The notes beneath the pieces are model-generated. The model made no database searches and was not told the DNA's origin. It worked only from the letters and a program-made list of their open reading frames with translations. A program made the position numbers and the translations under genes. From Escherichia phage WPEC1: a stretch of DNA of 64,000 nucleotides. Positions 17,141 through 18,803 of this stretch are shown piece after piece. The stretch lies in the sequence record PV659873.1. One strand, given 5' to 3'. Position 1 is the stretch's first letter, and the number at the start of each line of letters is the position of its first letter.

Positions 17141-17707
17141 ATGAAAGTAGAAAAAACAAAAATTGAAGGTGCGGTAATTATCAAACCAGATGTTTATAAA
17201 GATGATCGTGGTTTCTTTTTAGAAACATACAATGAACAAAAATACGAAGATATCATTGGTAAACAAACTTTCGTTCAAGATAATATGTCTAAATCAAACT
17301 TCGGTGTTTTGCGAGGAATGCACTTTCAAACAAATAACCCGCAAGGTAAGCTTGTTCGTTGTGTAAGTGGAGAAGTATTGGATTTCGCTGTAGATTTACG
17401 TAAAGATAGTCCAACTTACGGTGCTTGGGACGGTGTTGTTCTTCGTGCACGACACCATACGCAGTTTTGGCTTCCTCCTGGTTTGGCACATGGTTTTATA
17501 GTTTTGAGTATGGATGCGATCTTTGAATACAAATGCACAACTCCATACGACCCTTCTAGTGAACAAAGTTTACGTTGGGATGATCCTGACATAGGGATCG
17601 ATTGGGGCTTCGATATGATTTTTGACGAAGGTTTTAAACCTATTTTATCAACAAAAGATGCAATGGCTAAATCTTTTCAACAGTTACGTAGCGAGGGTGT
17701 ATGCTAA
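17141..17707 (+). CDS. dTDP-4-dehydrorhamnose 3,5-epimerase-like (RmlC family cupin)
   Basis: FGVLRGMHFQ, GKLVRCVSGEVLDFAVDLRKDSPTYG, LPPGLAHGF and WDDPD..IDW are typical RmlC signatures. Confidence 0.8.
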   Translation: MKVEKTKIEGAVIIKPDVYKDDRGFFLETYNEQKYEDIIGKQTFVQDNMSKSNFGVLRGMHFQTNNPQGKLVRCVSGEVLDFAVDLRKDSPTYGAWDGVVLRARHHTQFWLPPGLAHGFIVLSMDAIFEYKCTTPYDPSSEQSLRWDDPDIGIDWGFDMIFDEGFKPILSTKDAMAKSFQQLRSEGVC

Positions 17708-18543
17708 CATATCTGGTATTGGGTGGTAATGGACAACTGGGACAAGCTTTACGTAAAGTGGTTCCTTCAAATGTATCTTTAATTTATCCTAAAGAACGTG
17801 TAGATATTACAAATTTTGAAGCTGTGCGAAACGCTATTGTTGAAGATTATGTAGACGGTGTTATTAACTGCGCTGCTTATACGGCTGTAGATAAAGCGGA
17901 ACATGATTTTGCTACTGCTTTGGCTGTTAATGCGTATGGACCTGCAAATATTGCGGCAGTGTGCAGCAAACTTAAAATTGATTTTGTGCATATTTCTACA
18001 GACTATATTTTTAATTATTCTCATCCTATTTTTGAAGATACTACACCTAACCCAATAAACAATTATGGGTATACGAAAGAACTTGGTGAAAAAATGGTGC
18101 GAGGAGTTAACCCAAATGCATATATTATTCGAACAGCCTCAGTATATAGCGAATTTGGAAATAACTTTCTAAAAACGATGTTGTCTCGCTATAATGATGG
18201 ACAACGTGATTTTATTATTGTTGCTGATCAGTTCTCTTGTCCAACATATGCTCCAGATTTAGCAGAAGCTATTTTTGAAGTATTAAAAACAGGTTGGTCA
18301 AGGTCTGTTAAGACTTACCATTTTGCAGGAAGCCATTTTATTTCTTGGGCGGAGTTTGCGGAAAAGATCTTGACACAGATGCCAGAACCTGTTAAGATAT
18401 CGGCGGTATCAGCTTCAACCTATAATGCTCCAGCAGCACGTCCGGTGAAGTCACAACTAGTAACCAGTCACTATCTTACAAAATCAGATTTAAATAAAGG
18501 TATTGAACAGTCTTTAGCAGTATTACTTAATAAGGAGAGGTAA
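17701..18543 (+). CDS. dTDP-4-dehydrorhamnose reductase-like (RmlD family, NAD(P)-binding)
   Basis: N-terminal GGNGQLG Rossmann motif, STDYIF, C-terminal sugar-binding region. Confidence 0.7.
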   Translation: MLTYLVLGGNGQLGQALRKVVPSNVSLIYPKERVDITNFEAVRNAIVEDYVDGVINCAAYTAVDKAEHDFATALAVNAYGPANIAAVCSKLKIDFVHISTDYIFNYSHPIFEDTTPNPINNYGYTKELGEKMVRGVNPNAYIIRTASVYSEFGNNFLKTMLSRYNDGQRDFIIVADQFSCPTYAPDLAEAIFEVLKTGWSRSVKTYHFAGSHFISWAEFAEKILTQMPEPVKISAVSASTYNAPAARPVKSQLVTSHYLTKSDLNKGIEQSLAVLLNKER

Positions 18544-18803
18544 TGGAATTTGTAATTTTTGGTAAACCTAACTGTCAATTTTGCGAAATGTCAAAACAAC
18601 TATTAACCATGCGCAATAAACAGTTTGAATATTTAAGTCTTGATCAAGACTATGATTTAGAATCAATGACTAAAACAGTTGTTGATCTTACCGGAGTTCC
18701 TCCACGCACATTTCCACAAATTCTATCTGAAGTGAACGGGGAGGTAACATACGTAGGCGGTTTTACCGAACTGCGTGATCTCATGGCTCAAATTGCGGAG
18801 TAA
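18543..18803 (+). CDS. glutaredoxin-like protein
   Basis: FGKPNCQFCE CxxC active-site motif; about 86 aa. Confidence 0.7.
   Translation: MEFVIFGKPNCQFCEMSKQLLTMRNKQFEYLSLDQDYDLESMTKTVVDLTGVPPRTFPQILSEVNGEVTYVGGFTELRDLMAQIAE

Follow-up and report, generated by a model that had tools for sequence, protein, structure and literature searches.

Here we describe a locus of Escherichia phage WPEC1 at which a dTDP-rhamnose pathway has been reduced to the genes for its last two steps, rmlC and rmlD, and at which these genes are kept under strong purifying selection. The sequence analysed, referred to throughout as the window, is a 64,000-nucleotide stretch (record PV659873.1) of a phAPEC8-like coliphage of the genus Phapecoctavirus, subfamily Stephanstirmvirinae; the locus occupies positions 17141-18803 of its plus strand and comprises rmlC (dTDP-4-dehydrorhamnose 3,5-epimerase), rmlD (dTDP-4-dehydrorhamnose reductase) and grx (a glutaredoxin-fold protein). 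The interpretation we favour, with a probability of roughly 0.6, is that of a two-gene rhamnose module fed by the host, its product being used on an acceptor other than DNA, and grx being separate from it. The locus as such is essentially known, having been annotated and discussed for the phAPEC8-like group; what is new is the mechanism of the deletion, the recurrent, one-sided loss accompanied by selection on rmlCD, and a model of host complementation drawn from 5,426 Escherichia coli genomes.

Identity of the encoded proteins

The rmlC (17141..17707, 188 amino acids) and rmlD (17701..18543, 280 amino acids) genes overlap by 7 nt at the stop of the first and the start of the second, and rmlD overlaps grx (18543..18803, 86 amino acids) by a single nucleotide. 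The two enzymes were identified by profile searches, PHROGs assignments, motifs and alignment to solved structures, and Grx by PF00462, PHROGs and motifs. RmlC scored 225.3 bits against TIGR01221 (cut-off 155.75; residues 2-181 on profile positions 1-174 of 176) and 224.6 bits against PF00908 (cut-off 27). RmlD scored 246.9 bits against PF04321 (cut-off 27) and 239.1 bits against TIGR01214, a slim margin over the cut-off of 224.05, and lay below the enterobacterial-type model NF007440 (117.9 bits against a cut-off of 308). Grx matched PF00462 (38.1 bits, cut-off 22.9) and phrog_22, a phage-specific glutaredoxin-fold family in the nucleotide-metabolism category, and fell under the NCBIfam equivalog cut-offs for GRX_bact (33 bits against 90), GrxA (32.3 against 84) and NrdH (25.3 against 85.75). 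The naming in PHROGs agrees with that in NCBIfam/Pfam for all three proteins.

Alignments of RmlC and RmlD to crystallised RmlC and RmlD chains run end to end. RmlC contains the motifs RGMHFQ (His61), QGKLVR (Lys70), FEYKC (Tyr130) and STKD (Asp173), in which, according to the structural literature on RmlC, the catalytic His serves as base and the Tyr as acid, with Lys and Asp in support. RmlD contains GGNGQLG (residues 8-14), STDYIF (99-104, with Thr100) and YGYTK (122-126), and thereby keeps the GxxGxxG dinucleotide fold and the SDR Thr/YxxxK triad in alignment with 3SC6 and 1VL0; Grx carries CQFC (11-14), TFP (56-58) and GGF (72-74). By family assignment and motif content, the window genes are genuine RmlC and RmlD together with a glutaredoxin-fold protein, in accord with a sequence-only reading of the window that had called an RmlC-like gene, an RmlD-like gene and a CxxC glutaredoxin gene at exactly these coordinates, and the profile searches place them above the family cut-offs.

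Deletion of rmlB and rmlA between ribosome-binding sites

In phAPEC8, ASO2A, EP57, ESCO13, ukendt, Schickermooser, Ro121lw, 3A1 and phi92 the gene order is rmlB-rmlA-rmlC-rmlD-grx, and in these full-operon phages the five-gene module sits downstream of nrdA-nrdB and a few small open reading frames (ORFs). Viral metagenome contigs show the same order even where RmlD identity has fallen to 42%. Because it is common to Phapecoctavirus, to the sister-genus phage phi92 and to divergent metagenome contigs, we take the five-gene order to be ancestral.

Comparison of the junctions indicates how the shorter form arose. In full-operon phages a conserved 327-bp gene ends in ...TGGTAAGGAGA and is followed by ACTGATG, containing the rmlB start, while rmlA ends in ...GCGGAGA and is followed by GAAAATG, containing the rmlC start. 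The corresponding junction in the window reads ...TGGTAAGGAGAGAAAATG, and similarity to the full-operon phages begins at 17132. The scar itself, GGAGAGAAA (17132..17140, plus strand), doubles as the ribosome-binding site (RBS) of rmlC and is a hybrid of the rmlB RBS (GGAGA followed by ACTG) and the rmlC RBS (GGAGA followed by GAAA); the 1,876 bp of rmlB and rmlA are gone. On this sequence comparison, rmlBA was lost by a clean deletion between two GGAGA ribosome-binding sites that left rmlC with a hybrid RBS predicted to be functional. An identical scar is found in nine further rmlCD-only genomes, among them anhysbys, nepoznato, ZCKP1, Mt1B1_P17, SF1-1, ECO340P2, ECML-183-2 and WPEC4. The rmlCD-grx block is present in 64 public Phapecoctavirus records at 96-100% identity; rmlBA accompanies it in 48 of these 64, none of the listed rmlCD-only records being among the 48.

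Translated searches (tblastn) of the 64-kb window with phage RmlA and RmlB gave a sole match, RmlD's own Rossmann region (26% identity, E 2e-4), and the same queries found no RmlA or RmlB in the complete 149-kb genome of anhysbys, a close rmlCD-only relative. The window is mis-assembled (see below), and the absence of both proteins from the rest of it therefore proves little by itself. The loss of rmlBA is nevertheless established, because the junction lies within the sole trustworthy collinear block of the window, a 6.8-kb segment (16908..23753) that corresponds at 99.3% identity to positions 12001-18847 of the locus stretch taken from the clean genome of anhysbys. The absence of RmlA and RmlB and the partial nature of the pathway, both remarked on in the sequence-only reading, are thus upheld, the latter as the outcome of a clean rmlB-rmlA deletion and not as an effect of the window's edge.

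Recurrent one-sided loss and selection on rmlC and rmlD

Early-step genes have been lost or damaged in other ways as well. In MirsaeidiM_Esher1 rmlBA is gone and the junction differs from the scar found in the window. In Eryne, a phi92-like phage (PQ529420.1, 4086-5396), rmlB and rmlA are fused in frame (rmlB::rmlA) and RmlA residues 1-158 are missing, a part that includes the N-terminal GGSGTRL nucleotide-binding signature. In a 149-kb viral contig (IMGVR_UViG_3300030441_000047, 4233-5450) the 327-bp gene is followed immediately by rmlA-rmlC-rmlD-grx, only rmlB being absent. There are thus at least four distinct lesions, each in the early-step genes rmlA/rmlB. Among 18 Phapecoctavirus genomes examined no lesion was found in rmlC, rmlD or grx, all of which are intact.

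Selection was analysed on GenBank records, a scan of IMG/VR having yielded only 16 loci with one close relative. In a tree of rmlC plus rmlD, seven rmlCD-only genomes, the window included, form one clade. The codon changes within it number at least 14 nonsynonymous to 51 synonymous, giving an omega of ~0.076 and rejecting neutrality with P = 3e-22. The ratio in eight full-operon genomes (12:70, omega ~0.048) does not differ from this (Fisher p = 0.29), and grx shows zero amino-acid changes in the comparison. Both rmlC and rmlD are therefore under strong purifying selection in the clade that has lost rmlBA.

Host supply of the first two steps

Of 5,426 complete E. coli genomes, 5,422 (99.9%) yielded a glucose-1-phosphate thymidylyltransferase gene to a DNA probe of phage rmlA. 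The matches fall at 8,091 places, which implies that about half of the genomes hold two RmlA-type copies; one of these is presumably rffH of the enterobacterial-common-antigen (ECA) cluster. RffH and RffG make dTDP-4-keto-6-deoxy-D-glucose for dTDP-Fuc4NAc. A phage rmlC DNA probe proved too insensitive against E. coli genomes (22 partial matches), and an E. coli rfbD probe, used instead, detected RmlD in 2,386 of the 5,426 (44%, a lower bound with a DNA probe of a single allele). An O5 strain has rfbB-rfbA without rfbC/D, feeding another dTDP-sugar branch.

The RmlC substrate is accordingly present in essentially every host and its conversion to dTDP-L-rhamnose is not; the majority of E. coli strains would seem to lack the means of making dTDP-L-rhamnose. 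As the substrate is near-universal and RmlD is not, rmlBA would be dispensable and rmlCD would be kept, with the phage enzymes drawing on the host intermediate. The dependence so implied is that rmlCD-only phages should need host rffG or rfbB for dTDP-rhamnose.

A glycosyltransferase cluster conserved with the rml genes

Outside the 64-kb window, the anhysbys genome (NC_052656.1) encodes four adjacent annotated glycosyltransferases, gp013-gp016, on the minus strand at 10294-13438, adjoining genes for primase/helicase and DNA polymerase I. Their folds were assigned by structure prediction and Foldseek. The products of gp013 and gp014 are paralogues of the GT4-like GT-B type, and the other two are small GT-A proteins. 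The model of the gp013 family (pLDDT 93) comes closest to PglA, BshA, MshA, GlgM, SdgB and GtfC (TM 0.55-0.62), and that of gp015 (pLDDT 89), a minimal GT-A, has as its best matches STIV A197, vaccinia H3, B4GALNT1, LH3 and TarP (TM <= 0.45). Searches of the PDB by sequence, with single proteins or profiles, returned only noise, and NCBIfam gave no match.

The gp013 protein has homologues in 139 phage records, and these essentially coincide with the records that bear rml genes. Two distant phages are among them, Klebsiella phage 05F01 and Citrobacter phage Tr1, both of which encode RmlA as well. In rmlCD-only phages, including WPEC2, gp013 is 99-100% conserved. This pattern makes a functional link between the rml genes and the glycosyltransferase cluster plausible. 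In the BASEL collection one homologue from the cluster is annotated as 'putative disaccharide synthase'.

Proposed role of the two-gene module

In the favoured account, the locus is a derived, two-gene form of a dTDP-L-rhamnose module that the Stephanstirmvirinae coliphages have conserved. An ancestor would have acquired rmlB-rmlA-rmlC-rmlD by insertion between its aerobic ribonucleotide-reductase genes and their glutaredoxin, and a deletion at microhomology, from the GGAGA of the rmlB RBS to that of the rmlC RBS, later removed exactly rmlB and rmlA. RmlC (3,5-epimerase) and RmlD (an NAD(P)H-dependent 4-reductase) would have stayed active. The host, through RffH/RffG of the ECA pathway or through RfbA/RfbB, would supply dTDP-4-keto-6-deoxy-D-glucose, which the phage enzymes would convert to dTDP-L-rhamnose; this would most probably be consumed by the gp013-gp016 cluster in glycosylating a putative non-DNA acceptor. 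The glutaredoxin would act as reductant of the phage NrdAB.

A more specific version, which we offer tentatively and as distinctly less probable than the general one, is that rmlC and rmlD are the central part, independent of the host, of a glycosylation system autonomous to the phage. Together with the four glycosyltransferases, this system would tap the RffH/RffG pool of ECA precursor and place a rhamnose glycan on a non-DNA target such as virion proteins or a component of the envelope. Were it so, the draw on that pool could also lower the synthesis of ECA, the phage's primary receptor. We know of no such rhamnose glycosylation system characterised in a coliphage. Virus-encoded systems that glycosylate virions include the UDP-L-rhamnose enzymes of Mimivirus and the virion glycosyltransferases of mycobacteriophages; these likewise combine sugar activation and several glycosyltransferases in one virus, as would fit an autonomous system, whereas the carrier in Mimivirus is UDP instead of dTDP and the genome context is unrelated. 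For the present phage group no sign of glycosylated virion proteins came to light.

Several points weigh against the favoured interpretation. The activities of the group's Rml proteins and glycosyltransferases are ones that we infer from sequence. RmlD may be a related 4-reductase giving 6-deoxy-L-talose, because it lies only slightly above the equivalog cut-off (239 against 224 bits). The predicted glycosyltransferase folds reveal neither donor nor acceptor, and the co-occurrence of these genes with rml is largely confounded by shared ancestry. Recombination is evident, ECML-183-2 combining the deletion scar with an ESCO13-like rmlCD allele, so that part of the variation counted as post-deletion may have arisen or been filtered in full-operon backgrounds. 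The proportion of hosts with RmlD may exceed the bound of 44%. Finally, the case against DNA modification is an indirect one: the restriction phenotypes discussed below come from phi92-like phages, and digestibility by HincII is deduced from a list of uncut phages.

Alternative roles

The alternative that survives best, although we consider it improbable, is metabolic diversion: RmlC and RmlD would drain dTDP-4-keto-6-deoxy-D-glucose and thereby reduce ECA, excluding superinfecting phages or limiting the loss of progeny on debris, or dTDP-rhamnose would inhibit RmlA/RffH and spare dTTP. The chemistry would allow it, in that dTDP-L-rhamnose feedback-inhibits RmlA and dTDP-4-keto-6-deoxy-D-glucose is the branch point shared with dTDP-Fuc4NAc. 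The only two enzymes kept under selection are those acting at this branch point, and the operon that holds the rml genes is one of nucleotide metabolism, with nrdAB, grx and thyX close by. Moreover, all tested Vequintavirinae and phi92-like relatives need wecB/ECA (Maffei 2021), a dependence known from those relatives and not from Phapecoctavirus itself. However, the ancestral and still commonest state includes rmlA and rmlB, which would use more dTTP, not spare it; ECA that the cell already displays cannot be cleared in the course of a single lytic cycle; and the conserved four-glycosyltransferase cluster is left unexplained.

Remodelling of the host surface, in which rhamnose would enter lipopolysaccharide, O-antigen or core glycoforms in the manner of seroconverting temperate phages, we rate as unlikely. 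In its favour, PglA, an enzyme with an undecaprenyl-linked acceptor, is among the nearest structural matches to the GT-B model, and inner-core glycoforms of E. coli K-12 can receive rhamnose (Klein 2011, as reported in a paper citing it). Yet these phages are strictly virulent, with no integrase annotated in anhysbys, no flippase, polymerase or ligase genes are annotated, and the surface turns over slowly relative to a lytic cycle.

About equally unlikely, and the least supported of the proposed uses, is hypermodification of DNA, with phage glycosyltransferases moving rhamnose onto (hydroxymethylated) bases of phage DNA as T-even phages do with glucose. This was proposed by Olsen 2020 and Vitt 2024 and was among the uses named in the sequence-only reading, next to glycosylation of virion proteins and modification of host surface polysaccharide, which the four glycosyltransferases encoded elsewhere in the genome may serve. 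The genomic setting is suggestive, as the rml genes are found among those of DNA metabolism and the glycosyltransferases adjoin the genes for primase/helicase and DNA polymerase; gp015 also shows weak matches of about 40 residues around its DxD motif to the TET-associated glycosyltransferase family (TAGT; E 0.0011, below the Pfam cut-off) and to the beta-glucosyl-HMC-alpha-glucosyltransferase PHROG (E 5.8e-6, likewise sub-threshold). Against it, phi92-like phages, which carry the full rml system, are 'exceptionally susceptible' to restriction-modification systems (Maffei 2021). In HincII typing by restriction fragment length polymorphism of a collection of phages of avian pathogenic E. coli, the only uncut phages were ESCO10, ESCO47 and ESCO58, from which it would follow that ESCO5, ESCO25 and REC (rmlBACD) and ESCO37 (rmlCD only) were digested, that is, that Phapecoctavirus DNA of both operon types is apparently cut. 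Glycosyltransferases or base-modifying enzymes elsewhere in the genome had been looked to as support: the former exist in anhysbys, as described, while for the latter the annotation of the complete genome, which is not an exhaustive profile search, lists ThyX only and neither a ThyA-type hydroxymethylase nor TET/JBP. Among the 50 best structural matches to the GT-B model, neither the alpha- nor the beta-glucosyltransferase of T4 appears. The likeness to T-even phages extends to a virulent coliphage with glycosyltransferases among its early DNA-metabolism genes and stops at the hydroxymethylase, at the restriction sensitivity of the DNA (from the literature on relatives), at the donor, which would be a dTDP-6-deoxyhexose instead of host UDP-glucose, and at the folds, which are not closest to T4 AGT/BGT. 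The pattern of gene loss directs the search for an acceptor to the four-glycosyltransferase cluster and not to DNA.

That rmlC and rmlD are a decaying remnant, functionless passengers heading for deletion after the loss of rmlBA, is very improbable and already largely refuted: roughly one quarter to one third of the Phapecoctavirus records lack half of the pathway and further partial losses exist in Eryne and IMGVR_UViG_3300030441_000047, but both reading frames are intact in 18 of 18 genomes with their catalytic motifs, their omega of 0.076 is indistinguishable from that of full-operon phages, every independent lesion falls in rmlA/rmlB and never in rmlC/rmlD, and isolates of rmlCD-only phages have been obtained several times over, in Denmark, Egypt, China and Thailand at least, on Escherichia, Shigella and Klebsiella hosts.

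Affiliation of the glutaredoxin

The window Grx has homologues in 430 phage records, of which most lack rml genes and many have the match beside or overlapping annotated ribonucleotide-reductase subunits (nrdA/nrdB); DrSchubert, an rV5-like phage without rml, has the order nrdA-nrdB-grx-nrdD. The simplest reading of these gene orders is that grx belongs to a ribonucleotide-reductase module and merely adjoins the sugar genes, the rml cassette having probably entered between nrdB and grx in a forebear of the Stephanstirmvirinae. The grouping of glutaredoxin with the sugar enzymes in the sequence-only reading therefore finds no support. A role for Grx as redox partner of RmlD was considered and rejected: RmlD draws its reducing power straight from NAD(P)H and does not require a thiol reductant, and the conserved partner of Grx is ribonucleotide reductase. 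The window protein resembles the T4 NrdC type and the 'glutaredoxin 1' of rV5-like phages in being a small CxxC glutaredoxin-fold protein encoded with nrdA/nrdB. It differs in its active site, CQFC in place of CPYC or CVYC, and in the placing, within this subfamily, of the rml cassette and small ORFs between nrdB and grx.

Relation to known loci and earlier accounts

Most of the 64 records already name the three genes, as a 3,5-epimerase, a reductase (or 'nucleotide-sugar epimerase') and a glutaredoxin, and the two-gene state is annotated in anhysbys, nepoznato, ZCKP1, Mt1B1_P17, ESCO37, SF1-1, ECO340P1/P2, WPEC2/4/6 and others. Olsen et al. 2020 (PMC7552041) stated that phapecoctaviruses encode a complete dTDP-rhamnose pathway and speculated on the glycosylation of DNA bases; for anhysbys and nepoznato, both of them isolates of that study, the statement is wrong, since rmlA and rmlB are absent. 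Maffei et al. 2021 mentioned a 'putative dTDP glycosylation machinery', and Vitt et al. 2024 took up the idea of 'rhamnose modification' again. No discussion of the two-gene state was found in the literature searched. The present results correct the published view that all phapecoctaviruses encode the complete pathway, and they bear on the role of rhamnose in phAPEC8- and phi92-like phages, a question raised in several papers on phages of practical interest for their very broad host range.

The rmlC, rmlD and grx genes of the window are orthologous to, and syntenic with, those of phAPEC8 (JX561091; 98.4% DNA identity) and phi92 (NC_023693; 54-63% protein identity), and the flanks also match, with the 327-bp gene upstream and a small ORF, lysozyme, PhoH and the HslV-like gene downstream; unlike these phages, the window has neither rmlB nor rmlA, owing to the exact 1,876-bp deletion from RBS to RBS. 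Protein families and catalytic motifs are shared with bacterial RmlABCD (rfbBDAC of E. coli and Salmonella; RmlC 1DZR, RmlD 1KBZ/3SC6/1VL0), of which the window encodes steps 3 and 4 only. The phage rml genes were not captured recently from E. coli: phage rmlA shares 64-70% DNA identity with rfbA of E. coli, and the RmlD structures of Firmicutes match phage RmlD better than Salmonella RmlD does. In contrast to bacterial rfb clusters, no rhamnosyltransferase of any known O-antigen type is linked to the phage genes.

The rml cassette is mosaic among phages. Between phi92 and ASO2A the protein of the 327-bp gene is 90% identical and RmlB, RmlA, RmlC and RmlD are only 62, 71, 63 and 54% identical. 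In the 'Wecvirus' phages phiWec179/181/186/188/190 and in PsgM04F, rmlBA is 86-93% identical in DNA to that of phAPEC8-type phages; megablast aligns only the 3' end of rmlD together with grx, at 78.6%, rmlC and the greater part of rmlD having diverged too far. These patterns suggest that the cassette, or half of it, has been exchanged between phages. Some records assigned to other hosts, for example MG065650 'Campylobacter phage B15', OP562383 'Acinetobacter phage vB_AbaM_ABPW7' and OR584014 'Pseudomonas phage PsgM04F', share 93-99% identity over the locus with coliphages of this genus; their host labels seem doubtful and perhaps reflect contaminating coliphages or mislabelling.

Surrounding genes and transcription

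The gene upstream of rmlC is represented in the window by the 3' two-thirds of the conserved 327-bp gene (16908..17131, plus strand; homologue phAPEC8_00104/anhysbys gp193), as found by alignment and block mapping. The ORF listed at 16829-17131 has a chimeric 5' end, made by an assembly junction at 16907/16908. After grx a string of genes in the same orientation continues over 18809..21490 (plus strand), defined from ORFs, profiles and annotations of relatives: a conserved 49-amino-acid ORF directly after grx, a T4-type lysozyme (18966-19466), a PhoH-like ATPase (19453-20262), a 167-amino-acid ORF and an HslV/proteasome-like peptidase (20798-21490), the last with a weak match to PF00227 and named 'peptidase HslV family' in relatives. 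Further on, a 169-amino-acid protein (21954-22463) is annotated as a DNA methyltransferase in relatives and has no Pfam match here.

A hairpin scan found no terminator-like hairpin between the upstream gene, rmlC, rmlD and grx. Because such hairpins are absent, these genes are probably co-transcribed; for rml and grx this reflects operon packing. The earliest strong hairpin downstream, TGCCCCTTCGGGGGCA with a T-run (21496..21511), is terminator-like, can be read on both strands and lies past the HslV-like gene, and in ASO2A a terminator is annotated at the equivalent site.

Assembly of the window

Self-comparison showed that repeats of at least 95% identity cover 12,166 of the 64,000 bases of the window, in both orientations and in up to 24 copies. 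The lengths of the matches peak at 77 and 153 bp, that is, at k and 2k-1 for k = 77. Arrays of such fragments, in both orientations, lie at 4772-5867, 16677-16988, 23673-23830, 28628-31579, 41493-42284, 44947-45403, 54684-56687, 57519-59522 and 61748-63678. Each repeat piece tested has one copy in anhysbys and 5-21 in the window, and the unique blocks between the arrays map to scattered anhysbys positions in both orientations; the segment 16747-16907, for example, maps to 18767-18925 of the anhysbys locus stretch, away from the sequence it adjoins here. The window is also 100% identical, in pieces, to WPEC2/4/6 (PV691511, PV682947, PV763039; 155-159 kb), with 15-20 matching places per record.

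A reading of the 77/153-bp repeats as a genuine dispersed element was considered and set aside on account of the k and 2k-1 lengths, the tandem and inverted copies, the scrambled blocks, and the identity of the repeats with internal pieces of single-copy coding sequence in the clean genome. The window and the WPEC2/4/6 'complete genomes' are probably concatenated assembly-graph edges in scrambled order, and we flag these GenBank records as probable scrambled assemblies; sequence outside 16,908-23,753 is not a real neighbour of the rml locus. One repeat is of another kind: a motif of about 40 bp occurs at 94-100% identity, direct and inverted, at 13447-13487, 24091-24133 and 27399-27438, and more weakly at 3484-3520 and 14408-14447. 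Because its length is unlike those of the 77/153-bp artefacts, it may be a genuine repeated intergenic signal of promoter or terminator type.

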